From contig CAZNKB010000003.1 in NCBI GenBank assembly GCA_964573695.1, forward strand, positions 36,815-100,814: a stretch of DNA of 64,000 nt, read 5' to 3'. Shown here piece by piece: positions 1-18,125 of the stretch. The stretch is from an uncultured Gammaproteobacteria bacterium. Lineage in GTDB: Bacteria > Patescibacteriota > Microgenomatia > UBA10105 > UBA927. Within the stretch, counting starts at the first letter, position 1, and every line of letters starts with the position of its first letter. Position numbers and translations under genes: made by a program. Below the pieces are notes generated by a model. That model made no database searches. It saw nothing but the letters and a program-made list of their open reading frames with translations, and had not been told where the DNA came from.

Positions 1-3000
1 ACCGGTGATATGTCCGTAGGGGCATGGGTCAAGCGGAGCGCATCAGGCACTGATGTCGATGTAATTGCGGCAGATTGGGGCAACGCTATTGGAGACCAAG
101 AATTCCGCCTGTATTTTGATGCGACGGATTTTCCAACGTTTCAAACAACCGACGGGACATCCACGACGACAAGTGTAAGCCCTACGGCTATAACCGATAC
201 CAACTGGCACCATATCACCGCTCAGTTCAATAATAGCACCGCAAACATACAGTATCTCTATGTTGACGGGAGACTGGTCGACTCCGATACTGCATCATCA
301 ACAGATCAACCCAATAATACAGTGGCGTTTACTATAGGGGCAGACCTGTCCGGGGCAGCAAATACAGCGGCCAACTTTTTCCGCGGCACCATAGACGAAG
401 TCTATTACGACAGAGAAGGTCTTGACCCTTCTTATATCCGGCGCATATATGAATCCGGATACCGCGCGTTACAAAATCACACGTCAAGCCGTATTACCGG
501 TATATCCGGAGCAGATAATTATCAACGACTTCTCGGAAACGCGTCGGGTGGTACCGCTGCAAGCAACAATGCAACAAGTATCGCTATCGACGACACCCGC
601 CGGTTTATCTACGCCGGATTGCATGACGCCACTACCAATACCGGAGGCGTTACCGTTATCGCAGAAGAAGCGGATACTGCTATCGATCTATTTGACAGTA
701 CCGCTAACACCAGCAAAGACGATGACATCGGTACCCAATTTTCGGCAAATGACGTCGTTTCTATCTCGCTTTCCGGCAGTCCGTGTCCCGGATACAACGG
801 CGGATCCACAACCTGTAATAACTCCGCAACGCTAGCAATCGCAGGAACAAACGATTCTGCCACCAGGGTATGGATGGAAACCAGCACAGTGTCTATAGCG
901 GACGCACTAAGTCTTTTGGGCTCTACAAGCCTTACCAAAAATATCGCAAATATTACCAGCGTGCTACAGGTATACGATGTATACAATCGAAACGATGATG
1001 ACGCAACGGGTGGAGAACACCAAGTCCCAGCCCTGAAGGTCGACAGCACCGGCATGTTCACGTATAACTATTTAAATACTCAAACATCATCGGTTGCTAT
1101 GGACATTAACGACAGTACCCATACATCCGGAACTGTCATTGATATTAGTGGCTCTGCAATCAACTCTGGGGAAGGTATAAATCTATCTACAAACGCACTT
1201 ACTACCGGTCGTGGACTCTTAATAACTTCATCGGCTACAGGATGTACTAGTTGTGCACTCGAGCTCATCACCCACTCCGGTAGCAATGCAAACAATACCG
1301 GATATTTACTGCAATTGGCAAACACCGGGACATTAAACGCAAATACGTCATTCTATATCCAACACTATGCTACAGGGACCAATAACCTCGCCATGCGAAT
1401 AGATGACGAGAGCGCTGACACGACTCCGTTTGCCATAGACGGCTTGGGCAATGTCGGTATCGGCGACAGCAGCCCGGATTATACCCTGGAACTCTACGAC
1501 CCAACCAACACACCGGTTATCGTATTGTCTGACGATGATATCGCACAAGGATTTACTACAGATGTCGCTGCCACAGACGCATTCCTCCATATCTCTTCCA
1601 TATCAACAACAGCTGGAGGAGCTCAATTTACAGGCCTATCAAGCGGTGATGCACAAGCTTTTTCCATACGCGGTGGAATCGACAGTTCAACCCCGGCCAA
1701 CACAACCCCAGCGATTAAAATCATCGGGGGTAAACTTAGCGGCACGACATTCGGAGATCTCGATGTAGATTCTACACAAGGTGGCACCAATGCGGAAACG
1801 GTCTTCCAAATTGCCAACAACGATGACACAGCGAGCTTCACCATGCTCGGCAATGGCAACATAGGTATTGGCAACCAGGTGACTCCCCTTGCCAAACTCC
1901 ATGTCATCTCAAACCCGCTCGCAGCCCTTTATACAACCGGCAGGGCCGCAGCCATATTCGACCAATTTGAAAACCAGGATATTATCGCCGCCTCCGCCTC
2001 AGGGGTGACGAAGCTTCGGGTCACCAATACGTCCGACGTCATCGCAGAACGGTTTGTCGACCTGGGTAACACCTCCGGAACGTTTTATATCGACCCGGCA
2101 AATGGCACGACATCCATAGTTGTAGACGGAGCTATCATAAGCGACGGCGCTTTTAGCATCACATCAAATGGCACGAATGGTAATGTGACCATTAGCGCAG
2201 GCACCGGAGACGTCATTCTGGGAACTGCCGACAGCACCGGAGCAGAAGTATGTGTCAGCCTAGACGGCTCGACGTGTACCGGCAAGATCGATGCCGCGAC
2301 GTTTGATCCTCCCTATACGATCAATGACAAAAACTATGCCACCTACGCACCAAGCATGACGGGCATCAAAGAAGAAACAGTAGGAACTATCCAGACATCT
2401 ACGTATGTAGCGGGTATCGGATACAAGACAGAGATTGACTTTACCGATCTTCCCATAGGATCAGACCTCTGGCTGTTCTCACGGACGACGGACCTCAAAA
2501 CCAATGCGGACCAACTCGTCGTGCTGTTGTCTCCGGCCTCATCTGCGCGTGTATGGTACAGTTTTGATCCGGACGCTCTTATTCTCACCATGTATTCTTC
2601 GCGGCCGACCAGTGTTTCGTACCGGCTTACGGCTCCCCGCTTCGACTGGCAGCAATGGGCCAACACGCGCGCAGATGACGATCGGCGAGGTATGACGCTT
2701 AACTATGACAACGCCTGGTTTACCGGCAGCGGATCGGCCGCGGCTCCCGAAGATCCGCTTGCTCATCTTACGATCGAGCCCGTAGACGAAAGCACATTGC
2801 AGTTTAGGATCCGCCATGAAAACGGCGACATCATAGAAGAAGCGACCAGTTTTGCCCGGCTGCTCGTCGCTAATGTGCAAACGGGAGCAATCCGCAGTAT
2901 CAACGGCATATTCGGAAAAGTAGTGATCACCGAGTCTATAACATCCCCGGTAGCGCAAATAGATTCGGTACGTACCAATTCCATTTCACCTATCGCAACG

Positions 3001-4194
3001 GAATCCGGACAAATCACTGTCAATCTAAATCAAACACAATCATTCGGAATCAAAAATACGGATACAAATACCGTAACCACGACGTTTGATGCACTGGGGA
3101 ACGCGACACTCTCCGGCACACTCACGACAGAAAACCTCAACATAAACGGTGACGCGACGGTTGCGGGAGCATTAACCAGCACATCGGTAACCACGGAAGA
3201 TGCCCACCTTGACTCGCTATCGGCGAGGCAGGCATCCGTATCCGGTCAATTATATGCAGACCGCATTGTCACCAACTTCGGCGACCTGGACACCCGGTTC
3301 CAAACCATAGAGCAATCGATCGATTCTATAAGCACACAATCTGCCATAGCCTACACAAACCCAACACCTTCTACGAGTCCGGCTGCCGATTACGGAGGAG
3401 CAATTTCCCTGTCCGGAGGCGATGTCGTCGTCAACACGAATCTCTTTGTATTGGGCGACAGCTTGCTTTCCAGAACCTCAATTACAGGGTCGTTGCTCGT
3501 CGACGGCGTTATTCGCTTCGCAGAAAATGTCATAGAAACCATTTCGGAAACCCTATATATCCAAAAAAACAAACTCGCGTCTGTCGATATCCTCGACGGC
3601 ACGATTATCGCCGACATATGGAACCGGGTATTCGTCCGGGGCACACTGGGTATTTCAGGCAATACAACGATCGGAGGCGTCCTCGGAGCATCAACGCTGT
3701 CTCCGATTACCGGTAGTAACCTGACTATTGATTTGAATCAGTCCATCCCGGATCCTTTCGCATTACAGCAAGCTACCCCCTCATCCGGATTTGCTGACCT
3801 AGTCATCAAAGGCATAAACAACCAAACCGTCGCAACGATAAACGCATCCGGAAGCGCGACGTTTACCGGAACTGTTGCCGCTGATATGCTTGTAGCGAGC
3901 GGATCAGCAACGGTAAGCAAACTCAATATCAGCACGGGTGATGTGGCGGCATCTACGGACTCCGCTATCCCTTCCAGCTCTGTAGGTACTGGCCTATTGC
4001 CCGCAAACTTTACCGAAATCACCGTACTCTCCAATCAGATTGCAGCCGATTCACTGGTATACCTGACCCCGCTATCGAGTACGGGAAACCAAGTGATTTA
4101 TGTGAAGGAAAAACTGCCGGGCGTCGGATTCATCGTGGCAATTGATTCCTCCTTATCTATACCCATAAACTTCAATTGGTGGATTATCAATTAA
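1..4194 (+). CDS. 3' portion (1394 aa, N-terminus off-window) of a giant surface/fibre protein: LamG/concanavalin-A-like domain followed by ~1250 aa Thr/Ser/Asn/Gly-rich low-hydrophobicity region
   Basis: Frame is open to nt 1, so the ORF is truncated at its 5' end. The N-terminal ~140 aa carry LamG-type motifs (NWHHITAQF, LYVDG, FRGTIDEVYY). The same motifs recur in the downstream DUF2341-LamG gene. The remainder is extremely T/S/G/N-rich, with repeated GN(V/I)GIG motifs and few hydrophobic residues. Confidence 0.6.
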   Translation, partial: TGDMSVGAWVKRSASGTDVDVIAADWGNAIGDQEFRLYFDATDFPTFQTTDGTSTTTSVSPTAITDTNWHHITAQFNNSTANIQYLYVDGRLVDSDTASSTDQPNNTVAFTIGADLSGAANTAANFFRGTIDEVYYDREGLDPSYIRRIYESGYRALQNHTSSRITGISGADNYQRLLGNASGGTAASNNATSIAIDDTRRFIYAGLHDATTNTGGVTVIAEEADTAIDLFDSTANTSKDDDIGTQFSANDVVSISLSGSPCPGYNGGSTTCNNSATLAIAGTNDSATRVWMETSTVSIADALSLLGSTSLTKNIANITSVLQVYDVYNRNDDDATGGEHQVPALKVDSTGMFTYNYLNTQTSSVAMDINDSTHTSGTVIDISGSAINSGEGINLSTNALTTGRGLLITSSATGCTSCALELITHSGSNANNTGYLLQLANTGTLNANTSFYIQHYATGTNNLAMRIDDESADTTPFAIDGLGNVGIGDSSPDYTLELYDPTNTPVIVLSDDDIAQGFTTDVAATDAFLHISSISTTAGGAQFTGLSSGDAQAFSIRGGIDSSTPANTTPAIKIIGGKLSGTTFGDLDVDSTQGGTNAETVFQIANNDDTASFTMLGNGNIGIGNQVTPLAKLHVISNPLAALYTTGRAAAIFDQFENQDIIAASASGVTKLRVTNTSDVIAERFVDLGNTSGTFYIDPANGTTSIVVDGAIISDGAFSITSNGTNGNVTISAGTGDVILGTADSTGAEVCVSLDGSTCTGKIDAATFDPPYTINDKNYATYAPSMTGIKEETVGTIQTSTYVAGIGYKTEIDFTDLPIGSDLWLFSRTTDLKTNADQLVVLLSPASSARVWYSFDPDALILTMYSSRPTSVSYRLTAPRFDWQQWANTRADDDRRGMTLNYDNAWFTGSGSAAAPEDPLAHLTIEPVDESTLQFRIRHENGDIIEEATSFARLLVANVQTGAIRSINGIFGKVVITESITSPVAQIDSVRTNSISPIATESGQITVNLNQTQSFGIKNTDTNTVTTTFDALGNATLSGTLTTENLNINGDATVAGALTSTSVTTEDAHLDSLSARQASVSGQLYADRIVTNFGDLDTRFQTIEQSIDSISTQSAIAYTNPTPSTSPAADYGGAISLSGGDVVVNTNLFVLGDSLLSRTSITGSLLVDGVIRFAENVIETISETLYIQKNKLASVDILDGTIIADIWNRVFVRGTLGISGNTTIGGVLGASTLSPITGSNLTIDLNQSIPDPFALQQATPSSGFADLVIKGINNQTVATINASGSATFTGTVAADMLVASGSATVSKLNISTGDVAASTDSAIPSSSVGTGLLPANFTEITVLSNQIAADSLVYLTPLSSTGNQVIYVKEKLPGVGFIVAIDSSLSIPINFNWWIIN

Positions 4195-4366
4195 CTGCGT
4201 AGCCCCGTACCTGCGCCCTTGCGACGCGTGGATGTAAACCACGGGAGCAAGCAAGCTTGGTACTGGGGGTGGATCATTAACTAATATATGTATAGTGATA
4301 TACTTTTTCCCAGTTGACAAAATATAACGGGAATGATGTACTCTAAAAAGAGTTTAGTTCCCTGCC

Positions 4367-4912
4367 ATGAAATCATCGAAGAATCAGGCTACCACAGGGC
4401 AAGTCACATCTGCATTTGTTGCTATTGTCGTTATTATAGGCGCAAGCGTCTTTGTCTGGTTTAGGATGCAGCGCCAGAACATACAGGAAAAAGCAGGTCT
4501 GCCCACGCAAGTAGAAGCACAGCCGACTGCTATCCCCACGCCAACGCCGACTCCCACGAAATTATTCCATGGCAAAGACACCTATATAGTCAGTCGCGGA
4601 TCCCAAGCCAAAGGGCCAAATATTTCAGAAATCACATTTGATCCGTTGGATCCGGCAGTAGGCGCACAACAAATCATTTCCGTAAAAGTCAGTCACAACA
4701 ATCCCGTGACAGACGTCACGGTCAAACTGCGCACCGACACCAAAACCACCACGCTCAAGTTAAACCGCTCAGAGGGCACGGAGTTGGGCGGCACATGGCA
4801 AACCACCTGGACTATTCCGGAAAGTTACCTGTATAACTATGCAGCAACAGTGGTTGCCAGTGCGGGCAAGGAAGAAACATCCATTCCGATCATTATCCGG
4901 GAACGAAAATGA
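4367..4912 (+). CDS. small membrane-anchored hypothetical protein (N-terminal TM helix, PTPTPTPT linker, ~110 aa extracytoplasmic domain)
   Basis: 181-aa ORF. The TM segment is VTSAFVAIVVIIGASVFVWF and is followed by a Pro-Thr linker. Its stop overlaps the start of the next gene by 4 nt. Confidence 0.5.
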   Translation: MKSSKNQATTGQVTSAFVAIVVIIGASVFVWFRMQRQNIQEKAGLPTQVEAQPTAIPTPTPTPTKLFHGKDTYIVSRGSQAKGPNISEITFDPLDPAVGAQQIISVKVSHNNPVTDVTVKLRTDTKTTTLKLNRSEGTELGGTWQTTWTIPESYLYNYAATVVASAGKEETSIPIIIRERK

Positions 4913-5706
4913 AAAAATCGACACAGTCTATAGGATTTACCGTATTATTGCTCTTGAGTTTGAGTGTTGGTGCGCGTGAAGCACAGGCAGCCTGCAATTG
5001 GAGCCCAAGCGCAGGAAGTGTTACCGCCACAACATGCGGTATCGACGGACAATCAGAAGAAGCGTATGATTATTCTTCGGGAACGGATGACTCTACGAAC
5101 GGACTCACGCTTACCATTCCCAACGGAGTCACCGTTACCCTCAACACCGGTTCTGTGGGTACACCCACGACGCTCTATGTCGGGGCTATAAATCTCACTG
5201 GAACAGGATCTCTTGTGGCTTCTGCAAACTACGTGCAGATCAAAAGCGGATTCCGATGCTATGTGACCGATGCTGACGGCGACGGATACAGTCCAACCCC
5301 CAATGTATGTTCTTCAACAAGTGGTGCTGGGAAAATCCGCAAATTCTCATCAGGGTTCCATACGGGAGTTGACTGTGGAGACGGAAATAGCGCCGCTAAT
5401 CCAGGTCAGACTGTTGCCCAGTCAACGACATTTACCAATACCGCCACCGGGTTAAGCGGTGATTGGAATTGTAATGGCGCGGAAACGAAAACATACGCTA
5501 CAGCCACATATACCTGTAGCGCGTGCACCAACGGATCAGGGTATGCGAGTTTCCAAAATACCACAAACGGATTCCAAACGTCCGTACCGGCATGCGGAGT
5601 AGCAGGCACATACTATACGGTAACCAATGCAACGTGTGTAGATCCCGCTGTTGCAAACTGTGCAGCAAGTGCTACTACCTCCAGCGTTACACAAACCTGT
5701 CTGTAA
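4909..5706 (+). CDS. secreted Cys/Gly/Thr-rich hypothetical protein with signal peptide
   Basis: N-terminus MKKSTQSIGFTVLLLLSLSVGAREAQA is a typical Sec signal peptide. The mature part has many Cys and DxDGDG-like motifs. The start overlaps the upstream stop (ATGA). Confidence 0.5.
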   Translation: MKKSTQSIGFTVLLLLSLSVGAREAQAACNWSPSAGSVTATTCGIDGQSEEAYDYSSGTDDSTNGLTLTIPNGVTVTLNTGSVGTPTTLYVGAINLTGTGSLVASANYVQIKSGFRCYVTDADGDGYSPTPNVCSSTSGAGKIRKFSSGFHTGVDCGDGNSAANPGQTVAQSTTFTNTATGLSGDWNCNGAETKTYATATYTCSACTNGSGYASFQNTTNGFQTSVPACGVAGTYYTVTNATCVDPAVANCAASATTSSVTQTCL

Positions 5707-6424
5707 ATCATTGCGAGCGAATCCCCACGGGCGTGTATAACAACTTGGCTACTGTCGTAGATTTCTCATCGGAACGATCCAGTATAATCTCATCGTGGCT
5801 CATAAACTATGCGCTTGTTTATTCATATTAAGCACCTCACCCGTAAATAGCCATACATGGGCGCACACAACCACATGTAGACCCTTTCTATGAATACTAC
5901 CAATCCATATATACACGATAAACAAATCCAGCTCATGGTCACCCCTACGCGGGTAAACGTTTACAAAGGTACATGTGCTTCCCTCCTTCTGTTATCTCAA
6001 GTTTGATGCATGTCACGGACTCTAAATAAACGAACCAAAACCGTTCGGCCATAGAACAAAAATGTGTCATTACAATATGTCTATAGGATATATATTTAGG
6101 TACATATATCCCTGTACACACCATATATCCATTTATCCCGTTCTAGCAGCAAAGTATATACTCATGAAAAATCTTATTAGAACAATCCAAACTCACTCAA
6201 TGACGATCTATTATCCAAAATAGGCCTATAATTAGAATATAAAATACCTATAGTATAGCCTCGATATGCTAATTTTGAGAGTGATAATTTGACACATTTC
6301 TCGTAAGGTTCTGTAATAGTAATAGGCCTATGATTTTTACCGAGCAAACCCATGCAAACTCTAGTCATTTGAGGCTAATAAGCAACCTTCTTTCGCATAG
6401 CTTCCCATTCACATACACACCGTC

Positions 6425-9400
6425 ATGACATTGAGCCCAACTGATAAATTATATACTATAAGCCAAGCTTCAAAACGTCTTGGTGTCTCAATAAGCACAC
6501 TCCGCCGGTGGATAAAATTACACAAAATTGATGTGATTACTGATGCCCAAGGCATCCATGTTTTTAACGAATCCGCACTACAAAAAATCCAAACCATTAC
6601 TCCGGTTGTTTCACCACTATTACCAGATGTCGATGCATTGTCCCCCGCTCAAGCGGCAAAAGCATTGGGAATTTCAACGTGGACATTGCTTCGTTGGGAA
6701 AAAGCCGGATTGATCGTCAGTTCACGTACGCCAGGAGGAGCTCGCCGATTTCAAAAAGACGCAGTAGCTTCCCTACTCAGTAAACGAACCACATATCAGC
6801 GAGTTCCTTCGGAAACACCCCGGGTAAATAGAGTAAACCAGGTAGCCGACAAAAACGTAAGCAGTAACGTGCATCCAATAATAGCTACATCAAAATATAC
6901 TGAAACATATCAAAAAATACCCTCATATTCACAGCCGCCACATCGTAATTCGTTATATTTTATCCTTGTTATTCTTATTTTTTTGCTATGTAGCGGTATT
7001 ATTGGACTCCAAATTGCCGGCATGCAATCGAGCAAACAAACAGTACCGACACAAGCGACAAGCGGTGCCACGACTATAGACCAAAACATCATACAAACGA
7101 TCGTCGCTCAGGTTACAAAAATTATTGAATCCAATAGTTCGACGTCTATATCCGGACGCGACGGTATAGACGGCGCTACGGGTGCAACAGGACCACATGG
7201 CACAAATGGTGCAAACGGTTCAAATGGTACAAACGGCACCAATGGTGAGTTAGGTCCAATCGGTCCGACAGGAAGCACCGGGACGGGTGGAGGCGGCGGA
7301 GACGGACCAAGTGGAGCAACTGGAGCAACAGGATCTGGTGGTGTCGTTGGTCCTACCGGCTCTACTGGTGCGACGGGAGGAATAGGAGCAAGTGGCCCCA
7401 CGGGATCAACGGGGGCGACGGGAGGAAATGGACCCACAGGTGCTACCGGTGGAACGGGTATATCGGGAGCAGGAGGAGATGGACCAACCGGACCGACAGG
7501 TGCAAATGGTCCGACTGGTTCTACTGGTGCTACTGGTGGTGTTGGAGCATCTGGACCAACAGGATCAACAGGCGCAACCGGTAATGTTGGTACCTCAGGG
7601 CCAACCGGCTCAACTGGAGCAACAGGAGGAATTGGTGCAAGTGGTCCGACGGGAAGTACTGGTGCTACTGGTGGTGTTGGAGCATCTGGACCAACAGGTT
7701 CGACTGGGGCGACTGGAACAGCCGGAGCAAATGGTCCGACTGGAAGCACTGGGAGCACGGGATTAAATGGTTCATCAGGCCCAACGGGAAGCACGGGTGC
7801 CACTGGATTTCAAGGGGCATCAGGTCCTACTGGCTCCACCGGAGCAACAGGGGCAGTTGGCTCTTCAGGTCCAACAGGTTCGACTGGGGCAACAGGAGTT
7901 GACGGTCCAACGGGAAGTACTGGTGCCACAGGTGGTGTTGGAGCAAATGGTCCCACCGGAAGTACGGGTGCCACTGGATTTCAAGGGGCATCAGGTCCAA
8001 CAGGATCAACAGGCGCAACCGGTAGCATTGGTTCATCTGGCCCAACAGGAGTTACTGGAGCGACGGGAAGTATCGGTTCTTCTGGTCCAACTGGAAGTAC
8101 GGGTGCAACTGGAGCGACGGGAATACAAGGGTCTTCAGGACCGACAGGTAGTACCGGAGCGACTGGTGGAATTGGAGCAAGTGGTCCGACTGGTTCCACA
8201 GGAGCAACTGGCAGCATTGGAGCTTCTGGTCCTACTGGCTCTACTGGTGCAACTGGGAGTGTAGGTGCATCAGGCCCGACGGGTAGTACCGGTGCCACTG
8301 GTGGAATTGGAGCATCCGGTCCAACAGGAAGCACAGGTTCCACGGGAGCAACAGGCAGCATTGGAGCTTCTGGTCCTACTGGCTCTACTGGTGTAACTGG
8401 AGGCGTTGGAACAAGTGGCCCAACGGGTAGTACGGGAGCCACTGGAGGCATCGGGGCATCCGGTCCAACAGGAAGCACAGGTTCCACGGGAGCAACAGGA
8501 GGTATTGGCGCCTCTGGTCCGACGGGGGCTACAGGAGCCACTGGTGGAATTGGAGCAAGTGGTCCGACTGGTTCCACAGGGGCGACAGGTGGAATAGGTA
8601 TTTCTGGCCCAACCGGATCCACAGGGGCTACTGGTGGAATTGGTGCATCTGGACCGACGGGATCTACTGGAACAACAGGTGCCCAAGGTCCCACCGGCGC
8701 CACAGGAAGCACTGGTAGTATCGGGGCATCTGGCCCAACCGGATCCACTGGAGCAACCGGGAGTGCTGGCGTGTCTGGCCCAACCGGATCCACAGGGGCT
8801 ACTGGTGGAATTGGTGCATCTGGACCTACTGGTAGCACCGGAGCAACTGGTGGAATTGGAGCAAGTGGTCCGACTGGTTCGACAGGAGCAACAGGATTTG
8901 CAGGCCCTACCGGCTCAACGGGAACAACCGGTGTTCAAGGTCCGACGGGCCCTGTGGGACCAGGAGGAGAAACTCTCTTAAATTACACCGGCAGCGGTGA
9001 AACTGCATTTTTATACAACAACACAACGTACACATATGATTTCGCGACGCAAGACTTAATCTTAGGATACAGTGGGGTCGATGGTGCTGATATCACGACA
9101 CAAGACACGAACGAAAACCTAACCATTGATCCAAATGGAACTGGAACGATATATTTTCATGGCACTGCAGTACAGTTTGATAGCGATGGATCAATCACAC
9201 AAACAGCGACAGATACGACAACGGTTGCCTATTCATTACTTGCAAACAGCTTATCTTCAGGAACAGGCCTTTCGTTGACATCCACATCTACAAGCTTTTC
9301 TACAGGAAAACTTGCAAACATCGACTGGTCGCCAGGAAGTGCTACAACTGCAACTGGCGATCTTGTTCGAATCAACATCGGACCAAATGGAACCGTGGGC

Positions 9401-11263
9401 AATCTATTCAATGTCACTGACAATGCGTCAACACTTTTTAGTGTATCCGAAACACAAATCACCTCTGCCCTCCCCCACCAATTCACGGCAGCTGGGGACG
9501 TGGCAGTCGCTTACGACCTGATATTCACCAATCAAACGTCAAGTGGCATCAAATCATATGGCCCACTCACCATAGAATCCGGCGAATCATTTGAATCAAA
9601 TAACCTTATCCTCAAATCCTACAATAGCGGTAATCTGGTATTAGATATTGCCTCAGCGATTATCGATATAAACACCTCAAAATCACTCACGTTTACCAAT
9701 GCAAACAGCCCATTTGGAAGCGCTCTAGTCGCTGGCGCATTCATCGACACCAATTCTCGATTGACAGAAGAATTCAACATGGACACACAAAATTCAGCAA
9801 TCACTGCAGATAGCGCAGCTATTGGAGATGATGCATCCTGGTATTTCGATACTACAGACGTTTCATCAACATACTCAACTCCAACAGATACGGTAAACGG
9901 CATATCAAGACTTACCTTTGGCACCACCACAGGAGTTGGAGGTCTTATCGGTTTTGGCGGAGATACCGCCGCAAATGACTTAAATAGCATATTCCTGAAA
10001 GCAAACTTGCCGATCGTTGAAATGAAACTTCGCACAAATATAAACAACACAACAAACGACATCGTTTGGGGTATTACCGATCAGGCCACTGCACCAACGG
10101 TCAACGATACGCTTCCGGCAAACGGCATATTCTTCTGGCACAACAATACGACGACTTGGACAGGCTATGTTCGAAGCGGATCTGCAAATGTGGGCACGGC
10201 TACATGCACCGGTGGAGCGGTCAGCACGACACAATTTGCGTTGGGCCGTATTGAGGTGCTGAGTGCCACGTCAGTGCGGTTCCTCATGGACTATGATGTG
10301 TCAGATGGTGTTAATTTTATAGACTGCGGAACCGTTTCCGGAGCCAATCCTACCGCTGCTCTTGGTGCGACTGTCTATAACGTGCACACCGAAACGACCG
10401 GCTCACGAACCGTCGATGTCGATTTCTTCCGTGTATGGCAAGACGATGCAGTGGTACTAAGCCAAGATATCCTGCAGCAAGATATCGCCATAGAAGCAGG
10501 CCAAAAAATAGACGTCCGCGGAGAAGTTCACTTCACCGATGACCCCAATAATCCAGGGTTTTACCGCTTGATGGACAAAAACGGACTGCACATCAATGCT
10601 GTCTATATCGAAGATATACAAAGCAAGAGTCTTTCAGAGAAATTCAAAAACATTGATGCCGCCATCGCGTCGCAAAGTGGCAGTCTCGCTGTATCAGGCA
10701 CAGCCACGACATTCATTGATGGTATCCGGGAATTTTTATCAGAAATTCGGTTCAGCAATCTTGTACAATTTGTTGCTGATGTGGTGTTTCACGCAAACGT
10801 CGGCATAGGAGGAAAACTCACAGTAAACAAAGAGGCCACATTCAGTGGCCAACTCACATTCCCGGATAATATGGCCGGAAGCGCGGTAATCTCCAAATAC
10901 ACCCAATCGGTTGACGTGGTTTTTGATCACCCATTTAACACAACGCCAGTGGTCACTATTTCGCAGGTAATCACGAATGCCACGGATAGCGCATTTTTAT
11001 CCGAAGGATTTAATGCAGGAGTATCCAACATTACACCCAACGGATTTACCATATCCTTAGATACACTTGCCATACGGAATTATACATACAACTGGATTGC
11101 CGTATCTGTCAGCAATACACACCAAACAGTGTCGAGTTCCCCGCTTATGGATATTCTCGGTGTTGAGGATCAGCTGAGTGCAACGCCGTCAGGATCAACT
11201 GAATCAACAAGCTCTGGTATTCCAAACGAAAGCACACCCTCCGGGTGGTTAGATGCACAATAA
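6425..11263 (+). CDS. 1612-aa collagen-like triple-helix-repeat protein: two N-terminal MerR/excisionase-type HTH domains, one TM helix, ~600 aa G-X-Y repeats, C-terminal H-type-lectin-like domain
   Basis: HTH 1 is [22 protein letters not shown] and HTH 2 is [26 protein letters not shown]. The TM helix is [23 protein letters not shown]. About 200 uninterrupted [16 protein letters not shown] triplets follow. The C-terminal segment [20 protein letters not shown]...GFTISLDT...YNWIAV resembles the H-type lectin fold. Confidence 0.7.
7150..8965. repeat. ~1.8 kb of near-identical 9/18/27-nt tandem repeats encoding the collagen-like G-X-Y region
   Basis: Visible periodic DNA ggtccgactgg(a/t)agcac(t/g)gg(t/a)gc(a/t)ac(t/a)gg... 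Antisense ORFs with PVGP repeats are artefacts of this repeat. Confidence 0.85.
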
Positions 11264-11265
11264 CT

Positions 11266-14200
11266 ATGATAAAACGACGCAGTACAAAGATATGGAAAAA
11301 ATCGCTCGCAATCCTTCTTTGCGCGCTCATACTCGTTGTCGGCATTCGACTCATATGGTTTAGACCGGAACAAATTGAGGCCGCCTGGTACAACGATACC
11401 TGGGGATTTCGGGTAAAACTCACGATCGATCATACGAAAGTTGCTGCAGACCAGACAGATTTTCCTGTCTACGTGGATCTGTCAAAACTACCTGCAATCT
11501 TTCATGCTCATGTCAATCAGACCGATGGACGAGATATTCGCGTTACCACAGCCAATGGATCGACTGAACTACCTCGCGAAGTGGTCTTTTATGATGCAAC
11601 GTCAAACAAAGGCGAATTACATTTTAAATACACAGGAACACTTTCATCATCAACAGACACAAGCGTTTATATCTATTTTGGAAATGCAGGTGCAAGCGAC
11701 TATGCAGCTAGCGACACCTATGGGAAAAATAATGTGTGGGATAGTAGTTTTTCCGGTATACACCATCTCCAAAATAACAGCTTTGCCGATTCTACCTCAG
11801 GGGCACATAACGGCACCAACAATGGCACAACCAACACATCGGGTAAGGCAGGAGATGGACGACTCATTGATGCGAACGGTGAATATTTTTCGGTGCCACT
11901 ATCGGGATATATACATACATCAGTTGGTACGGTAGATTGGTGGTACAAAAATACTGTCTCCTCTGCAAACTTTTTAAGTTTTTGGGGCTCTAATGAGGGA
12001 GACAATCAATTTCAATTTCAACGTAGTACGCTAGACACTAGTCTAGATTTTATTGTCAATTCTAGTGGTGCAAACTGGACCTCTCTAGCAAAAAATGTTT
12101 TTGATGGTTCCTGGCATCATATAGCCGTTGTGTACGATACCACAAATAACACACAGGACTTGTATATTGATAGCGTTGCGCAAACACAAAATATAGAGAA
12201 TCACACAGATATCGATATTTCCACCTACGCCCTCCTTATAGGTGAGAATGGTGCAGGGGGAGGAAACAACGCCAGAGGGGTCATCGATGAATTTAGGGTA
12301 TCAAATAATCTTAAACGGAGCAGCACATGGATCACGACCGAATACAATAATCAAAGTAGTCCCACCACGTTTTTTACCACAGGGGCAACAGAACAGAGAA
12401 AGTCAGCAGTTCTCAATCTGGCCTTTGACGAAGGGTACGGAACAACCGTCAATGATTCTTCATCCAATGGATATACTGGCACCCTCAGTGGCGCTACAAC
12501 GCCTTCCTGGCAATCTGAAAGTCAATGTATTTCCGGCAAATGCCTCTATTATCAAGGCTCCACTGCCTATACAAGCATTGGAACATCGGTGCCAAACGTT
12601 CAGTCTGTTTCGTTTTGGGTAAAGCCGAAGACAAACGCAGAAACACTCGTGGATTTTGACGGTGGCACACATTATATTTCTGCGTCAGCTGGCACCATTA
12701 CCGCCACCGGCTTTTCATCCTCTACTATTTACGTAAATGGAAAATCAGGAAATACATTAACTGCTAACGCATGGCAGCACATAGAAGTCACGACCGCCAC
12801 AGCGTTTACCGCCTCAGCGATAACCATTGGCAAACAATCCACCAATTATCTTAATGGGTTTATTGATGAATTTACGCTGTATGATTATGCCCGATCTTCG
12901 TCTCAAGTAAAACTAGATTTTACATCCAGATCTTCTCGGTCCGGCGTGGGTGCCCGTTTCGGTCCCGATACGGGAAACACGCTTTCCAACGGACTCGTGG
13001 GGTACTGGAAAATGGATGAAGCCGCATGGGGTACGCCAAATTGCTCAACGGACGTTACCATGGATTCATCTGGCAATGGAGCAAACGGCGACGCATGTCC
13101 TACTTCAACTGGACCAGTCGGGGGAAATGTGGGCAAATTCGGAAAAGCAGTAGCCTTTGATGGAAGTGACGACTATATCCCTATCAACGGGTCTACTGTA
13201 TATGCAACAATGAATTCTCCATTTAGTGCAAGCGCATGGGTTAATTTAACTGACTTTAGCACATCAAATTATCCAGTTGTTATCGCTTTGCGAAGCGATG
13301 ATACCGACCCATGGTTTATTATTTTGTCCAATCAAACTAACTTCTTAGGAGTCAGTATTGGAAATGATAACTCATTCGCAGGGATAAAAACTGACACTCC
13401 GACGGCGAGTTTAACCGGCGCGTGGCATCATATAGCTGTTTCATATAATGGTCAAGGCTCGGGAGCCATGACCAACTTCAAAATATATCTTGATGGACAA
13501 CTACAAACAAACATCGCGTCTGGAACCTATGCGAGTCACTCACAAACCACGTCCATTGGGTATAACGGCGGAGGAAATCGTTGGTACGGATCTATCGATG
13601 AGGTACGCGTGTACAACAGAGCCCTCTCCACATCAGACGTGAATCAGTTATACAATTGGGCTCCAGGACCAATCGGATATTGGAAAATGGACGAAAACAC
13701 GGGAACAACGATTTACGACACGAGCGGAAACGGATATAACGGCACATTTCAGGATAGCCTAACAAAAGCAGATTGGAAAAATGGAAAATACGGCTCTGCC
13801 GTCTCATTTGTAGGCGCAAACAAATCTATTTTGGCTCTACATAGTACCGGATTTGATTTTGGAACATCTACAAAGTTTACCGTGGGAACATGGGTTAAAG
13901 TAACGGCCGATACCGGATCTCAACAATCATTAATTAATCCAACTGGCGTTGTATCAGCAGGCTTTGAATTATACACGGGAAGTGACGGTAAACTTCGTGC
14001 AGCTATCGGAAGCGGCACATATTGTTCCATACGGAATACTGGCGTGACCCTTGAAGACAACAATTGGCATTATGTCGAAGCAGTATTTAACAGGGGGTCC
14101 GGTTGCACAACAGCAAGCACACAAATATATATTGACGGCAAGCTAGAACCAACTTCAGTTGCGGACAGTAGCGGCGGTGCCGACGCAAACATAGACATGG

Positions 14201-16464
14201 GTGGAATCAAATTCACGTCATCGTCCACGAACGACTCTGTTGTTTTGGACAATGTTATTATATATAACTACGCCCGTACGCCGGGTCAAATTATAGAAGA
14301 TATGAACGCCGGGCATCCGGCTCCCGGCTCCCCCATTGGCTCCTACGTCGCATATTGGAAGTTTGACGAGGGAGCGCTGAATACCTGCTCTGGAGGAACC
14401 AATGACTTTTGCGATTCGAGCGTAAACGCCAATGATCTGGCTGCTCCACCTACTACGACCATACTAACGAACGCCGGAAAATTTGGCAAAGCGTTTAATG
14501 CAAGTGGAGCAGTTTTGGCAACAAGAGCAGATGACAGTGACTTCGATTTTGCCGCGGCTGACGATCTATCCATGAGCATGTGGCTATACGCCAGTGCCGC
14601 CGATAAACCGACTTCCGGCAATGTCCAATATGTCTATACCAAAGGGGGTATTGTCGCTGCCGGGACAGTTGGCTATATTCTCTATACAAACTCTAGTGGT
14701 AATGTTTCCTTTGCCATACGCTCAACCTCAGGCAACTGGGTGGCAACTCCTCCTGCTGAACCCACATCCGACGATAAAGTTACCTCTACTACTGATTTGT
14801 ACGACAGTACATGGCACCATATCGTCGTGACAAAAACGGGAACCTCGCGAATTGATCTTTTTGTAGACGGAAAACTGAACGCGTCCGATACGAGTCTGAC
14901 CGCAACAGGGACGCTAGAGAACGCTGTCACTAGTAGGTTTGCAGATAGAAACGAGACCAACGACGGAGATGAATTTGTCGGAAAAATAGATGAAATGAAA
15001 ATATACCGCTTGGCACTGAATACCGATCAGGTCAAGGTGGAATACAATCATGGCTTCCAAAACCAATTAGGCGCTCTTTCCACCGACGCTTCAAATAATC
15101 CCTCCAATTCCGCCACCGACGAATATTGTCCTCCGGGCCAAGGATCTGATTGCACTGCGCCAGTCGGGCACTGGAAATTAGATGAAAACACTGGCACATC
15201 AACAGTGTACGATTCAAGTGGAAATGGAAGAGACGGCACAATGACAAACATAAGTGAAGATGATTGGGCTACAGGAAAACTCGGGTCAGGTATTAATTTT
15301 GATAACGCAAATGATTATGTCAATATTGCCGACAATGATGCGTTTTCCGCAAATACGACCAATCAACTTACCGTCGAAGCCTGGGTATATCTTGACGCGC
15401 TCGGTATTACCCAAGAAATCGTCAATAAAGGAGCTGCTTCTAACTACGAATGGGCAATCCGGATAAATACTGACGGCAACACACTTGCATACTTATATCA
15501 ATCGGGTGGAGGTACATACATGGTTACACCATTTGCTTTGGCGGCTGCGACCAATACATGGTATCACCTTGCGTTGGTTGCAGATGTAAGCATCCCCTCT
15601 TTAAAATTATTTATTAACGGAAAATTTGCGGCGGAGGATACGACTGCTTCGGGATCGTATACCAACGGCACTGCCGCGGTACGGATTGGTGATCGGGTAG
15701 ACGGTATTACAGATGTGGATGGTACCGTAGATGATGTGCGAATATACAACTACGCCCGCACCCCTGCTCAAATTGCCTGGGACTACAACCGCGGCGGACC
15801 GGTTGGATGGTGGAAATTGGATGAAAACACGGGAACTGCTGCCAATGATTCCATGGGCAATAGTACAGCTGGAACGCTCACCAACACGCCTACGTGGGCA
15901 ACCGGAAAATTGAATCAGGCGATATCATTTGCAGGTAGCAACCAACATGTGTTGATTGGAGATGATCCTGATTTTGATTTTGCCGATGATGAAAACATGA
16001 CCCTCACGGCTTGGTTTAAACACACAACTGCATCCACGCAGGAGGTTATTTTGTCAAAATACGCCGCAGCCGGATATAAAATTATCATGGAATCCGACGG
16101 GGATATAACATGTGGATTAGACTATGACGCTACGTGGACACCAACAGATTCGGTAACTTCAACACTCGCTACCTACGATGATGATAATTGGCACCATATT
16201 GCCTGTATAAAAACTGGTGCAACCAGTTTAGAACTATATATTGACGGTATATTGATAACAACGGATTCATCAATTACAGCGACGAACACACTAACAAATG
16301 CGGATCCAATATATTTAGGAATTGACGCCGATGGCACATCAAATGATTTTACTGGAACAGTAGATGACGTCAGAATCTACAGATATCCACTCACCCCTCA
16401 ACAAATCAAAACCGTTATGGGAGAAAGTGCGGTTCGATTCGGCCCGTTAACTGGGTCGCCGTAA
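11266..16464 (+). CDS. ~1730-aa giant surface protein: N-terminal TM anchor, DUF2341-like domain, then 5-6 LamG/concanavalin-A-like lectin repeats
   Basis: The ATG at 11266 lies immediately after the upstream stop, and a GTG at 11245 is an alternative start. The TM is LAILLCALILVVGIRLIWF. The DUF2341-like segment is WGFRVKLTIDH...DFPVYVDL...DIRV...YIYFGN. Repeated modules carry (Y/W)WK(M/L)DE...G...D.SGNG..G and WHHIA...LYIDG...IDE(F/V)R(V/I)YN motifs. Confidence 0.7.
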   Translation: MIKRRSTKIWKKSLAILLCALILVVGIRLIWFRPEQIEAAWYNDTWGFRVKLTIDHTKVAADQTDFPVYVDLSKLPAIFHAHVNQTDGRDIRVTTANGSTELPREVVFYDATSNKGELHFKYTGTLSSSTDTSVYIYFGNAGASDYAASDTYGKNNVWDSSFSGIHHLQNNSFADSTSGAHNGTNNGTTNTSGKAGDGRLIDANGEYFSVPLSGYIHTSVGTVDWWYKNTVSSANFLSFWGSNEGDNQFQFQRSTLDTSLDFIVNSSGANWTSLAKNVFDGSWHHIAVVYDTTNNTQDLYIDSVAQTQNIENHTDIDISTYALLIGENGAGGGNNARGVIDEFRVSNNLKRSSTWITTEYNNQSSPTTFFTTGATEQRKSAVLNLAFDEGYGTTVNDSSSNGYTGTLSGATTPSWQSESQCISGKCLYYQGSTAYTSIGTSVPNVQSVSFWVKPKTNAETLVDFDGGTHYISASAGTITATGFSSSTIYVNGKSGNTLTANAWQHIEVTTATAFTASAITIGKQSTNYLNGFIDEFTLYDYARSSSQVKLDFTSRSSRSGVGARFGPDTGNTLSNGLVGYWKMDEAAWGTPNCSTDVTMDSSGNGANGDACPTSTGPVGGNVGKFGKAVAFDGSDDYIPINGSTVYATMNSPFSASAWVNLTDFSTSNYPVVIALRSDDTDPWFIILSNQTNFLGVSIGNDNSFAGIKTDTPTASLTGAWHHIAVSYNGQGSGAMTNFKIYLDGQLQTNIASGTYASHSQTTSIGYNGGGNRWYGSIDEVRVYNRALSTSDVNQLYNWAPGPIGYWKMDENTGTTIYDTSGNGYNGTFQDSLTKADWKNGKYGSAVSFVGANKSILALHSTGFDFGTSTKFTVGTWVKVTADTGSQQSLINPTGVVSAGFELYTGSDGKLRAAIGSGTYCSIRNTGVTLEDNNWHYVEAVFNRGSGCTTASTQIYIDGKLEPTSVADSSGGADANIDMGGIKFTSSSTNDSVVLDNVIIYNYARTPGQIIEDMNAGHPAPGSPIGSYVAYWKFDEGALNTCSGGTNDFCDSSVNANDLAAPPTTTILTNAGKFGKAFNASGAVLATRADDSDFDFAAADDLSMSMWLYASAADKPTSGNVQYVYTKGGIVAAGTVGYILYTNSSGNVSFAIRSTSGNWVATPPAEPTSDDKVTSTTDLYDSTWHHIVVTKTGTSRIDLFVDGKLNASDTSLTATGTLENAVTSRFADRNETNDGDEFVGKIDEMKIYRLALNTDQVKVEYNHGFQNQLGALSTDASNNPSNSATDEYCPPGQGSDCTAPVGHWKLDENTGTSTVYDSSGNGRDGTMTNISEDDWATGKLGSGINFDNANDYVNIADNDAFSANTTNQLTVEAWVYLDALGITQEIVNKGAASNYEWAIRINTDGNTLAYLYQSGGGTYMVTPFALAAATNTWYHLALVADVSIPSLKLFINGKFAAEDTTASGSYTNGTAAVRIGDRVDGITDVDGTVDDVRIYNYARTPAQIAWDYNRGGPVGWWKLDENTGTAANDSMGNSTAGTLTNTPTWATGKLNQAISFAGSNQHVLIGDDPDFDFADDENMTLTAWFKHTTASTQEVILSKYAAAGYKIIMESDGDITCGLDYDATWTPTDSVTSTLATYDDDNWHHIACIKTGATSLELYIDGILITTDSSITATNTLTNADPIYLGIDADGTSNDFTGTVDDVRIYRYPLTPQQIKTVMGESAVRFGPLTGSP

Positions 16465-16522: not shown

Positions 16523-17017
16523 ATGAAACACATAATGAAAATCGTCGCGATAATAATACTCCTCCTTATCAGCGTGGCAGGAGCGGGTGCATCATACTAT
16601 TGGTACAACCGATATCAAACCGTGGTGACCAACCCACAGGCAGGATCCACCGAAGAAATACAAACAATCGTCAAAAAACTCTCCGCGTTCATGGACTTAC
16701 CCAATGAAACTCCCTCTATAGTGACTGTTACAGACCGGGAAAAGCTCCAAAACCAGGAATTTTTCAAAAAAGCAGCTAACGGCGACAAAATTATTATCTA
16801 TGAAGCATCCCGACGGGTCATCCTCTACAGACCTTCAACAAACCGAGTGATTGACGTGGCTCCGCTTGTATTTAATGATGCGACACAAAATTCCCAACAG
16901 CTCATGCCGCAAACCAACCCCACTCCCCTCGTTGAGGCGGACTTACCTTCCACAGGTTCGGCTGATGGAATCACAACGCCAACTGGGGAATATAATAAAT
17001 TTATGCCTACACCTTAG
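16523..17017 (+). CDS. small membrane-anchored hypothetical protein
   Basis: 164-aa ORF with an N-terminal TM (IVAIIILLLISVAGAGASYYWY) and a hydrophilic C-terminal region. Confidence 0.45.
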   Translation: MKHIMKIVAIIILLLISVAGAGASYYWYNRYQTVVTNPQAGSTEEIQTIVKKLSAFMDLPNETPSIVTVTDREKLQNQEFFKKAANGDKIIIYEASRRVILYRPSTNRVIDVAPLVFNDATQNSQQLMPQTNPTPLVEADLPSTGSADGITTPTGEYNKFMPTP

Positions 17018-17044: not shown

Positions 17045-17566
17045 CTACTCCGAACACACAGCATAATCCGTGCCGGATAATCCGCTGCACTTCGTACCAC
17101 ATCGCGACCAAGACGCACCGATTTCGCTATCAGATGCGTTTTCAAGAGACGCCTTGAGGCAAAAATCATCCCCTGCGTTTACCTGATAATAAAACATACT
17201 ACTCCCTAATTCTCCGGGGAATTTGGTCATGTACACGGTGTCGCAGCCGGTCGCTCCCGCGGCAAATGCCACCGAACACGTAGCGGGGCAAAGCGTCGAC
17301 GCATTGGATCCGCACCCTGCGATGTAATTAAGTTTACCGACGCCCCCGTTTGCGGCGTCAGGATAGACCTTATAATCATTGTAATACAACTGTAAGGCTG
17401 TCTTAAGTTGATTCAATTCTCCCTTTCGTCTCGCATCACGCGCTCTGCTTCTGGCTCCCAAAAAATTTGGTAACGCCAATCCGATGATAGTGGCAATCAC
17501 CGCAATACTCACAAGCAATTCTATTAACGTAAATGCATCAATATGTTTTTTAGTATTATTTTTCAT
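17045..17566 (-). CDS. type IV pilin/pseudopilin-like protein (class III signal, N-methylation motif)
   Basis: From an internal Met the leader is MKNNTKKHIDA|FTLIELLVSIAVIATIIGLALP (prepilin cleavage / FTLIE motif), followed by ...LQLYYND... Confidence 0.65.
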   Translation of the reverse strand: MKNNTKKHIDAFTLIELLVSIAVIATIIGLALPNFLGARSRARDARRKGELNQLKTALQLYYNDYKVYPDAANGGVGKLNYIAGCGSNASTLCPATCSVAFAAGATGCDTVYMTKFPGELGSSMFYYQVNAGDDFCLKASLENASDSEIGASWSRCGTKCSGLSGTDYAVCSE

Positions 17567-17589
17567 ATATTTATATATATAAGTATATA

Positions 17590-18108: not shown

Positions 18109-18125
18109 AATACAAAACCAAAAAC

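Follow-up and report, generated by a model that had tools for sequence, protein, structure and literature searches.

Putative collagen-stalked lectin fibres with a DNA-binding-type cytoplasmic end encoded at a locus of a Patescibacteria genome

How members of the Patescibacteria, or candidate phyla radiation (CPR), recognize, hold, and respond to their hosts is, to our knowledge, largely unknown, and almost none of these bacteria have been cultured; an attached lifestyle is the usual inference for the lineage. The question is raised in concrete form by a 64-kb stretch of DNA from an uncultured bacterium (GenBank assembly GCA_964573695.1, contig CAZNKB010000003.1, positions 36,815 to 100,814 of the forward strand; hereafter the window), the first 16.46 kb of which carries three giant open reading frames (ORFs) on the + strand, here called p1, p2, and p3: what are these proteins, and what would they do at the cell surface? 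The relatives recovered for the locus come from Gottesman-, Woese-, Ames-, Davies-, Levy-, and Beckwithbacteria, Moraniibacteriota, and Hainich groundwater metagenome-assembled genomes (MAGs), all of them Patescibacteria/CPR, and by these sequence relationships the source is an ultra-small, groundwater-type member of the Patescibacteria/CPR, of the Microgenomates type. We consider it fairly likely, at a probability of roughly 0.6, that the three proteins are glycan-binding adhesion or recognition fibres of the envelope, put together from exchangeable cassettes, with p2 having a type II topology and a DNA-contacting base.

An initial annotation, made from the letters of the sequence alone, had listed three neighboring giant surface proteins with LamG, collagen-like, H-lectin-like, and DUF2341 modules, and the domain searches recovered each of these elements. 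p1 (1..4194) represents the C-terminal 1397 codons of a giant fibre protein whose ORF runs past the window start, p2 (6425..11263) is a single continuous ORF of 1612 amino acids, and p3 (1732 amino acids) begins at an ATG at 11266, 2 nucleotides past the p2 stop and the likelier start, or at a GTG at 11245, and ends at 16464; together the three account for 14.2 kb of the 16.46 kb, and base composition is even across them. Laminin_G_3 (PF13385) matched amino acids 1–134 of p1 with 61 bits and p3 with 393 bits, the collagen family PF01391 matched p2 with 205 bits against a gathering threshold of 27.2, and the H-type lectin family PF09458 matched amino acids 1496–1560 of p2 with 32.1 and 34.2 bits against a threshold of 24. 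Pfam thus found both LamG and DUF2341, the latter barely: DUF2341 (PF10102) reached 23.6 bits against a threshold of 23.4 in p3, and only when the N-terminal 220 amino acids were scanned alone. A glycan-binding role is plausible because the heads are of lectin type (LamG, a concanavalin-A (ConA)-like fold, and H-lectin), and all three proteins would serve attachment or host interaction, as the initial annotation had proposed.

The main feature of the locus is the architecture of p2, which is solid. From the N-terminus, it consists of two helix-turn-helix (HTH) domains, a Pro-rich linker, a transmembrane (TM) helix, an amphipathic segment, a collagen-like stalk, a cassette that we call module A, a ConA-like fold, a beta-spiral, and an H-type lectin domain. 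The HTH pair and the internal TM helix had been overlooked initially. The TM helix (6944..7024, amino acids ~174–200) is the sole hydrophobic window above 1.8 in p2, and it is separated from the second HTH domain by the motif SRTTYQRVP followed by the Pro-rich linker. We infer that the HTH domains lie inside and the rest of p2 outside because there is no signal peptide, the basic N-terminal domain is folded, and domains of the outside type follow the TM helix, making p2 a predicted type II single-pass membrane fibre protein. The earlier description of the proteins as membrane-anchored or secreted therefore stands for p2, with its one internal TM helix, and for p3, which starts with an N-terminal hydrophobic anchor or signal. 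The amphipathic segment beyond the membrane (7067..7132, amino acids ~215–236) is conserved in the homologous proteins P0002 and P0103 and is, by analogy with type II transmembrane collagens, a candidate trimerization or nucleation helix. At the outer end of the TM helix lies the motif QIxGxxxGxQ[RK], common to p2, P0103, P0069, P0105–P0108, P0110, and the proteins of loci L006 and L001 (L and P numbers denote loci and proteins of relatives). This motif is kept alike in collagen fibres that carry HTH domains and in those that carry an integrase-type domain, and a role in cleavage or trimerization is conceivable.

The collagen-like stalk (7154..8974, amino acids 244–850), delineated by PF01391 (E = 1e-61), tandem repeat (TRF) arrays, and triplet analysis, comprises 201 G-X-Y triplets in runs of 17, 19, and 165, separated by two interruptions of 2 amino acids. 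The regularity of the repeat suggests that the chains form a triple helix, which, with the collagen helix rise of 0.286 nm per residue, would be ~172 nm long. The number of triplets differs among orthologues (65 in P0002 and 239 in P0103), and the exact number in p2 is uncertain because contigs of relatives often end within the collagen repeat. Thr occupies 58% of the Y positions, the commonest triplets being GPT, GAT, and GST; where p1 had initially been put forward as an ideal substrate for O-glycosylation, this Thr-rich stalk is the better candidate.

The stalk leads into a composite head. Module A (9182..9649, amino acids 920–1075) is a cassette of ~150 amino acids that has no match in Pfam or PHROG and is 55–78% identical in dozens of otherwise dissimilar Patescibacteria proteins; its AlphaFold2 (AF2) monomer model was not foldable, with a predicted local distance difference test (pLDDT) score below 50. 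Module B (9677..10459, amino acids ~1085–1345) is likewise invisible to Pfam and was modeled by AF2 with pLDDT values of 70–91 as a ConA-like (L-type lectin) jelly roll. A Foldseek search of the PDB with this model retrieved the carbohydrate-recognition domains of ERGIC-53, VIP36, and Emp46p as well as SO2946 (E = 2e-7 to 1e-5; template modeling score on the target, ~0.6). A helix and a beta-spiral of short strands lead up to the C-terminal H-type lectin (10910..11104, amino acids 1496–1560; pLDDT 70–91), after which comes an acidic S/T/P tail; the lectin domain is also present in the orthologues P0001, P0002, and P0103. p2 hence bears two lectin-type domains, the second one recognized because the module B model matches L-type lectin folds.

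The N-terminal pair points to DNA. HTH1 (6452..6598, amino acids 10–58) is a MerR/HTH_17-type winged HTH matched by PF13411 over its full extent, though over profile positions 1–49 of 69 only, and HTH2 (6638..6787, amino acids 72–121) is a winged HTH of the BldC/excisionase type with an RTPGGARRF wing, matched by PF12728 (amino acids 72–121) and PF00376 (amino acids 74–109); the latter family scored 57.6–63.7 bits over two stretches of p2. HTH2 passed the cutoff of the excisionase DNA-binding domain TIGR01764 (41.9 against 28.8 bits) and stayed below that of the BldC family NF033787 (37.1 against 77 bits), and the nearest PDB structure was that of BldC (6ama/6amk, E = 3e-6). BldC is a MerR-like protein of 68 residues that lacks a coiled coil, forms head-to-tail multimers on direct repeats, and contacts DNA through K26, T27, T29, R30, W31, K33, H46, R47, and R48 (PMC5859096). 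When these residues were placed on p2 by eye, via the PDB alignment, six of the nine were found to be kept in HTH2, namely T27, R30 (base-specific), W31, K33, and the wing arginines R47 and R48, which correspond to T87, R90, W91, K93, R107, and R108 of p2 and are invariant in the family alignment. In HTH1, four of the nine are identical, with the recognition-helix residues kept; this domain also weakly matches the chromosome-anchoring protein RacA in NCBIfam. The coiled-coil dimerization helix and the C-terminal effector domain are absent, and what comes after the HTH pair is the Pro-rich linker and next the TM helix; p2 is therefore no MerR regulator of the classical kind, and no OmpR/PhoB-type winged HTH (Trans_reg_C) was matched in Pfam scans of p2. 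Taken at the level of sequence, the HTH end of p2 has probably retained the ability to bind DNA.

An independent view of this end of the protein comes from the orthologues of p1. Within the window, p1 consists of the LamG domain, ~1250 amino acids that have no Pfam match, and a C-terminal beta-sandwich ending in INFNWWIIN. The middle part had been described as ~1250 residues of almost pure Ser/Thr/Asn/Gly, a statement that did not hold up: these four residues make up 39% overall and 27–46% of each 100-residue block, and hydrophobic residues make up 23–37% per block. Since the composition equals that of p3 (38.7% S+T+N+G), p1 is an ordinary beta-rich protein rather than a low-complexity tract. 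The AF2 model of its amino acids 199–1397 had a mean pLDDT of 41 and was confident only at window residues 788–878 and 1328–1397; Foldseek returned nothing for this model at E ≤ 0.001, the C-terminal ~70 amino acids gave weak fold matches to tailspike and fibre tips (E = 0.016–0.1), and an hhalign comparison of the p1 C-terminus with the H-lectin end of p2 reached a probability of 86% across 20 columns.

An NCBI protein of 1860 amino acids on a 152-kb contig, P0070, is 100% identical to p1, so that the window removes at least 463 residues, and the true loss is probably larger, judging from how orthologous genes have been called. Exact look-ups of p2 and P0070 in a contig index gave no match. 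Among the p1 orthologues, which are 48–71% identical, public gene calls begin at an internal Leu or Met inside the conserved segment "...NLIYPYPVVNRSxALGSxTFSPxDNPS". For the orthologue P0073 in locus L006, the ORF proper is 2418 amino acids long; it opens with a tyrosine-recombinase core-binding domain (Phage_int_SAM_1, PF02899, 41.7 bits), continues through a Pro-rich linker and a TM helix, and then has 81 G-X-Y triplets; in both L006 and L001, the Phage_int_SAM domain, TM helix, and collagen stand upstream of the conserved NLIYPYPVVNRS...SDTFSP segment. The p1-type N-terminus of L001 lies beside LeuRS in divergent orientation, and the contig stops within its collagen repeat. On this sequence evidence, p1 is the C-terminal part of a second fibre, the orthologues of which start with a core-binding domain, TM helix, and collagen. 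Phage_int_SAM_1, a DNA-binding fold unrelated to the HTH, thus holds in these orthologues the position that the HTH pair holds in p2, and because two unrelated DNA-binding folds interchange there, DNA binding is the likeliest retained activity of the cytoplasmic end.

The p2 arrangement is not confined to the window. We searched a hidden Markov model (HMM) profile of the HTH-HTH-TM region exhaustively against 1.84 billion representatives and obtained 10225 matches at E < 1e-3, of which 477 reached E < 1e-10. The 148 best representatives included 43 that were at least 600 amino acids long, and 39 of these 43 had one hydrophobic segment at amino acids 130–280 followed by a long S/T/N/G-rich sequence; lengths in this set reach 3060, 3291, 3356, and 5310 amino acids, and many of the shorter matches may have been cut by contig ends. 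The members that carry a taxon name are all from Gottesman-, Davies-, Levy-, or Beckwithbacteria, which are Microgenomates phyla, and public records label members as "MerR family DNA-binding transcriptional regulator," "excisionase family DNA binding protein," "Peptidase S74 domain-containing protein," or "hypothetical protein." At the sequence level, then, a layout of HTH inside, single TM helix, and giant extracellular region recurs in Patescibacteria, its outside parts including collagen, Peptidase_S74, Peptidase_G2, NosD/beta-helix, and H-lectin, and the whole p2 architecture is repeated in P0103 (1926 amino acids) and P0002 (1279 amino acids). When metagenomes were scanned, HTH and TM were encoded at 10 of the 11 top loci; 7 of these 10 ran on into collagen, and in 6 of the 7 the contig ends inside the repeat.

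Comparison of the family members suggests how the fibres diversify. One metagenomic gene (L010:645-5864, Ga0209726_10019529) is complete with 1495 amino acids and joins an HTH-HTH end and collagen to a p1-type C-terminal region of 725 amino acids (32% identity, ending FDWFIIN), and directly after it lies the start of a second HTH-type gene; fibre genes thus occur in tandem and swap heads. In P0117, the HTH-HTH unit is joined to a TM/juxtamembrane segment that hardly differs from the one in the L001 protein of the integrase type. By these sequence comparisons, the N-terminal domain, stalk, and head are shuffled independently.

Collagen repeats are hard on assemblies and gene callers, and the giant ORFs, or the fusion of HTH to fibre, might in principle be artefacts of assembly or gene calling. 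Many contigs of relatives indeed end in the repeat, which breaks assemblies; L003 carries a frameshift there, the collagen region that precedes the gene in L005 shares its DNA with an ORF in another frame, and public p1-type calls are N-terminally truncated. Against this, the same domain order was obtained from independent samples and assemblers (ENA Hainich, JGI, Logan, and NCBI; for example, P0002, P0103, L006, and L010), dozens of clusters have a single ORF that encodes HTH and TM ahead of the repeat, and the composition of the window's ORFs is even, so that an artefact is hardly credible. Since contigs break in the collagen repeat and p1-type calls lose their N-termini, the HTH-TM-collagen gene class is systematically underassembled and misannotated. 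The contigs that end in collagen repeat are those of L002, L004, L008, L009, and L011–L014, and in L005, the called gene does not run on from the collagen sequence that precedes it. Locus L004 (L004:1-7050; GCA_016218205.1, JACREO010000013.1, Candidatus Gottesmanbacteria) contains a called product of 20,250 amino acids ~3 kb from the HTH-HTH-TM gene P0069.

The third protein, p3, combines its N-terminal hydrophobic anchor or signal (nucleotides ~11290–11370) with DUF2341 (nucleotides 11524–11706; amino acids 94–154 when numbered on the GTG-start ORF) and a string of LamG domains, in which Pfam delimits 6 Laminin_G_3 stretches and start and end motifs delimit 7 modules. Assignment of p3 to the TafC family was rejected, as the NCBIfam match is confined to the LamG domain and scores 108 bits against a cutoff of 410. 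p2 and p3 are kept as a pair in L001 and L003, where a p3 orthologue with a 72–76% identical N-terminus directly follows the p2 orthologue; the 2 genes overlap by 4 nucleotides in L001, compared with the gap of 2 nucleotides in the window, and the DUF2341 region is 72% identical in the L001 orthologue. In L002, a p2 tail that is 88% identical is followed by a LamG protein, and a scan of genome contigs with the p3 N-terminus yielded a single relative. The fibre genes of L001, L003, and L006 flank a DNA-uptake block of LeuRS, ComEA, ComEC, and MBL.

A different picture emerges from L005, a contig of 1.29 Mb that keeps the window order of a p1 orthologue, the small ORFs orf181 and orf265, three pilins, Wzy_C, GT2, Alg14, GT28C, and radical SAM genes at 50–78% identity and has nothing matching 5707–17044, an 11.3-kb segment holding the spacer upstream of p2, p2, p3, and the small ORF orf164. 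By this alignment, the p2-p3 pair is an insertion of ~11 kb relative to L005. The GC skew is near zero at 6001–16000 (−0.027 to +0.029) and between −0.04 and −0.157 in all other 2-kb bins of the window, and this near-zero stretch coincides with the segment missing in L005. The initial annotation had drawn its host-interaction argument from the clustering of the giant genes beside pilins and a huge glycosylation island. Both are present in the window, with three type IV pilin-like genes at 17045–18896 on the − strand followed by the island; in relatives, the clustering is borne out for p1, which is syntenic in L005, and not for p2 and p3, which are absent there, so that the clustering of all three is lineage-specific.

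An indel with deviant GC skew also raises the possibility that the three genes are tail-fibre genes, or remnants thereof, of a prophage or tailocin. Homologues of the shared modules often end in the intramolecular-chaperone domains Peptidase_S74 or Peptidase_G2, the p1 C-terminus weakly resembles tailspike and fibre tips, and mobile elements typically carry HTH domains of the excisionase type and N-terminal domains of integrases. None of the corresponding virus searches, however, gave a match: PHROG had none for p1 or the p2 head, a tblastn search of INPHARED had none for the p2 head, a pattern scan of IMG/VR found no relative of module A, and no capsid, portal, terminase, or baseplate family turned up when the remaining ORFs of the 64-kb window, down to a length of 150 amino acids, were scanned with Pfam. 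The TM anchor is, moreover, fused in frame, and p1 is chromosomally syntenic with the pilins and island in L005. We regard a phage origin of the genes as very improbable and, given the negative phage-database and virion-gene scans, treat p1–p3 as cellular envelope proteins; the S74/G2 domains, the excisionase and integrase folds, and the p1 tip nevertheless hint, as far as sequence goes, at a mobile-element ancestry of parts.

The spacer upstream of p2 (5707..6424, 718 bp) is non-coding, and its final ~200 bp are conserved with the orthologous loci L001 and L003. It contains TTGACA at 6287 and two copies of the palindrome ATAGGCCTAT, at 6220 and 6322, 102 bp apart, which overlap CCTATRRTT repeats at 6225 and 6327; related repeats stand upstream of the p2 orthologue in L001 (6851–6883). 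These elements could be a candidate operator for the HTH domains of p2 itself and serve as a lead only. Scans for promoters and terminators around p2 and downstream of p3 gave results at chance level.

Several observations weigh against the proposed fibres with a DNA-contacting base. At the DNA-binding end, HTH1 is degenerate, having lost its basic wing; three BldC contacts (the equivalents of K26, T29, and H46) differ in HTH2; CCTATRRTT was picked post hoc, and its total count is not above chance; and the promoter scan around p2 was also at chance level. The adjacency of p2-p3 to the pilins is not conserved, and the N-terminus of the window's own p1 falls outside the window. AF2 monomer models are poor for module A and most of p1, so that the label "fibre" leans on the collagen repeats, composition, and weak tailspike-like matches, and the topology, trimerization, triple helix, and glycosylation of p2 are each predictions.

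The points that concern the HTH domains, together with the sub-threshold BldC score of HTH2 (37 against 77 bits), are also those that speak for the main rival, according to which the HTH end no longer binds DNA and acts as a cytoplasmic plug for protein interaction or anchoring, the fibres being adhesins with an exapted anchor. There is a precedent in RodZ, the HTH of which binds MreB. On the other side are the six of nine BldC contacts that are identical and invariant in the family and the replacement of the HTH by an unrelated integrase core-binding domain on the same chassis, which is hard to explain unless DNA binding is selected. We therefore think a plug unlikely, while granting it more weight than the other rivals, and prefer envelope fibres whose base touches DNA.

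Such fibres might work as follows. The HTH pair of p2 would lie in the cytoplasm, a single TM helix would cross the membrane, and the remainder would stand outside. Three chains would trimerize via the juxtamembrane helix, the collagen, and the H-lectin into a triple helix of ~170 nm, holding a trimeric head with double lectin domains at a great distance from a cell whose own diameter is just a few hundred nanometers. The Thr-rich stalk may be O-glycosylated by the neighboring GT-C and GT2 enzymes, for which glycosylation of the BclA stalk is a precedent, and the fibres would bind glycans of host cells or surfaces, with anchor, stalk length, and head acting as cassettes exchanged between genes and genomes. 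p3, encoded right after p2, is an N-terminally anchored or secreted string of DUF2341 and seven LamG modules. The cytoplasmic end, finally, would bind the cell's own DNA, either as a membrane-tethered regulator that controls its own gene or reports fibre engagement, following the logic of ToxR and CadC and possibly released at the conserved juxtamembrane motif, or as a tether between fibre and nucleoid, following that of RacA.

The same Thr-rich GPT/GAT/GST stalk and the very large adjoining glycosylation island, with its PMT_2 and YfhO GT-C enzymes, are what one would expect of a protective, glycosylated "hairy nap" or envelope layer similar to that formed by BclA on the Bacillus exosporium, in which case the fibres would not be host-specific adhesins. 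That they end in lectin-type domains (ConA-like, H-lectin, and LamG) argues otherwise, as does the strong variation of heads and stalk lengths among close relatives, which is typical of recognition molecules; a purely protective layer seems improbable to us, although nap and recognition roles are not mutually exclusive.

A bolder extension of the adhesion-fibre reading is that the fibres couple the outside directly to the chromosome: a trimeric glycan-binding fibre of ~170 nm would carry six cytoplasmic DNA-binding domains, and binding or pulling by a host would be passed to DNA without an intermediary. This could occur through operator occupancy, as in ToxR and CadC; through force-triggered cleavage at QIxGxxxGxQR that frees the HTH part, in the manner of Notch; or through tethering of the nucleoid to the attachment site. 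We offer this coupling as a speculative and doubtful proposal.

To place p2 among known systems, we compared it first with bacterial collagen-like proteins. BclA of Bacillus anthracis, Scl1 and Scl2 of Streptococcus pyogenes, and Lcl of Legionella share with p2 long, Pro-poor, and Thr-rich G-X-Y tracts of the GPT type and the plan of a collagen stalk topped by a globular head; like p2, they are placed at the surface and presumed to act as adhesins or as a nap. The p2 repeat nevertheless scored far below the cutoffs of the NCBIfam families SclB, Lcl, and SclA (209 against 325, 195 against 500, and 177 against 400 bits, respectively). Unlike Scl and BclA, p2 is attached through an N-terminal TM helix with a cytoplasmic HTH part rather than by a sortase, LPXTG motifs being absent from p1, p2, and p3, or in an exosporium basal layer; compared with all three groups, its stalk of 201 triplets is far longer, and its head consists of ConA-like and H-type lectin domains instead of a TNF/C1q-like or V domain.

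At the other end, HTH2 resembles the small MerR-like winged-HTH binders BldC, Xis, RacA, and TraN in having neither the MerR coiled coil nor an effector domain, and the tandem of two winged-HTH units in the p2 chain is reminiscent of TraN of pIP501. Those proteins are small and soluble, whereas the HTH domains of p2 form the cytoplasmic end of a 1612-residue membrane protein. In this respect, p2 resembles ToxR, TcpP, CadC, VtrA, and carbohydrate-sensing RsgI, which combine a cytoplasmic domain that binds DNA or controls transcription, a single TM helix, and a ligand-binding domain outside in one chain; in these known systems, the layout couples an outside signal directly to transcription. The likeness to ToxR, CadC, and RsgI, which depends on the predicted N-in orientation, suggests a possible way of working and not family membership, as p2 and its kin have MerR/excisionase or integrase core-binding domains rather than an OmpR-type HTH and a fibre of ~1400 amino acids rather than a compact sensor.

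Eukaryotic type II transmembrane collagens, class A scavenger receptors, and membrane collectins, such as collagens XIII and XVII, MARCO, and SCARA4/CL-P1, are likewise laid out with an N-terminal domain in the cytoplasm, a TM helix, a helix next to the membrane, a collagen triple helix, and, at the C-terminus, a head that is of lectin type or binds other ligands. The class A scavenger receptor (SR-A) proteins are homotrimeric type II glycoproteins (PMC8353498). The lectins of p2 belong to other families, and the HTH pair inside sets it apart; its likeness to these eukaryotic proteins is almost certainly convergent. Large LamG/DUF2341 proteins of Patescibacteria, of which kind p3 and the LamG domain of p1 are, have been discussed as putative adhesins, and DUF2341 has been annotated as a component of type IV pilus-like systems (PMC11809585, PMC12911398). 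What distinguishes p3 from typical proteins of this kind is that it is encoded straight after the HTH-collagen-lectin protein p2, a pairing kept in two further genomes. Phage tail fibres and tailspikes, lastly, resemble p1–p3 in their trimeric-fibre logic, in shuffled receptor-binding cassettes, and in the S74/G2 domains of the module relatives; p1–p3 themselves lack an S74/G2 domain, are membrane-anchored, and have a chromosomal context.

In the light of these comparisons, p3 and the idea of an attachment arsenal are ordinary, because LamG/DUF2341 proteins and clusters of pilin and glycosylation genes have already been read as adhesion factors. What appears to be new is the union in one protein of a collagen-like adhesin with a membrane one-component layout, together with the long stalk, the lectin heads, and a swappable DNA-binding anchor; we found no account of HTH-TM-collagen proteins in CPR bacteria in the open-access full-text literature. 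The architecture is widespread, with dozens of 50%-identity clusters among the best matches, yet hidden by public annotations. The locus thereby provides concrete candidates for host contact, in the form of a fibre with a measurable anchor, stalk length, and lectin heads plus a built-in link to DNA. Gene regulation or nucleoid tethering by the HTH end, if either occurs, would amount to a new mode of coupling cell contact to the chromosome; if neither does, the fibres would nonetheless account in part for the "pili-like" surface structures and for the large number of glycosylation genes that these organisms maintain. Should direct coupling hold true, it would represent a principle of contact sensing or anchoring that is peculiar to episymbiotic bacteria of ultra-small size and that has been assembled more than once, from two DNA-binding folds unrelated to each other. 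A practical lesson is that gene calls of this kind are often N-terminally truncated and that contigs break in the collagen repeat.

The remaining genes around the fibres are smaller. Downstream of p1, and conserved in that position, orf181 (4367..4912, + strand) encodes a small membrane protein in which a Pro/Thr linker connects a TM helix to a beta-rich domain, and orf265 (4909..5706, + strand), the start of which overlaps the orf181 stop, encodes a secreted Cys-rich protein with a signal peptide. Neither has a match in Pfam, PHROG, or NCBIfam; their syntenic counterparts in L005 are 52% and 53% identical, respectively. The small membrane or secreted protein encoded by orf164 (16523..17017, + strand) is part of the p2-p3 insertion and absent from L005. 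A 36%-identical homologue (L018:8562-8828) lies just downstream of an unrelated HTH-TM giant of 2372 amino acids, and orf164 may be an accessory factor of HTH-TM fibres.

Beyond orf164 follow the three type IV pilin-like genes (17045..18896, − strand), which have N_methyl, T2SSG, and GspG-like matches and are context rather than fibre parts. Their ORFs overlap, and 30–40 residues come ahead of the processing motif G|FTL(I/M)EL, so that translation probably begins at internal codons. A scan of the whole window with Rfam at gathering thresholds and a tRNA search yielded no RNA genes. The glycosylation island contains two Wzy_C genes, many GT2 and GT4 glycosyltransferases, Alg14/GT28C, DegT aminotransferases, radical SAM proteins, PMT_2, YfhO, and a dTDP-sugar epimerase. 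Large multi-pass membrane proteins are encoded at 40164–46724 and 49674–53344, including PMT_2, PTPS_related, and YfhO members of the GT-C type and several ORFs of 530–570 amino acids that have no family match. In the middle of the island, at 30595–31461, lies a gene for a leucine-rich-repeat protein (LRR_8, E = 3e-23). Toward the end of the window, a protein of 642 amino acids (58674–60602) carries a C-terminal NPCBM/NEW2 glycan-binding domain (E = 2e-32) and is followed by one of 816 amino acids (60547–62997) that has no Pfam match; both are candidate surface or glycan-binding proteins.

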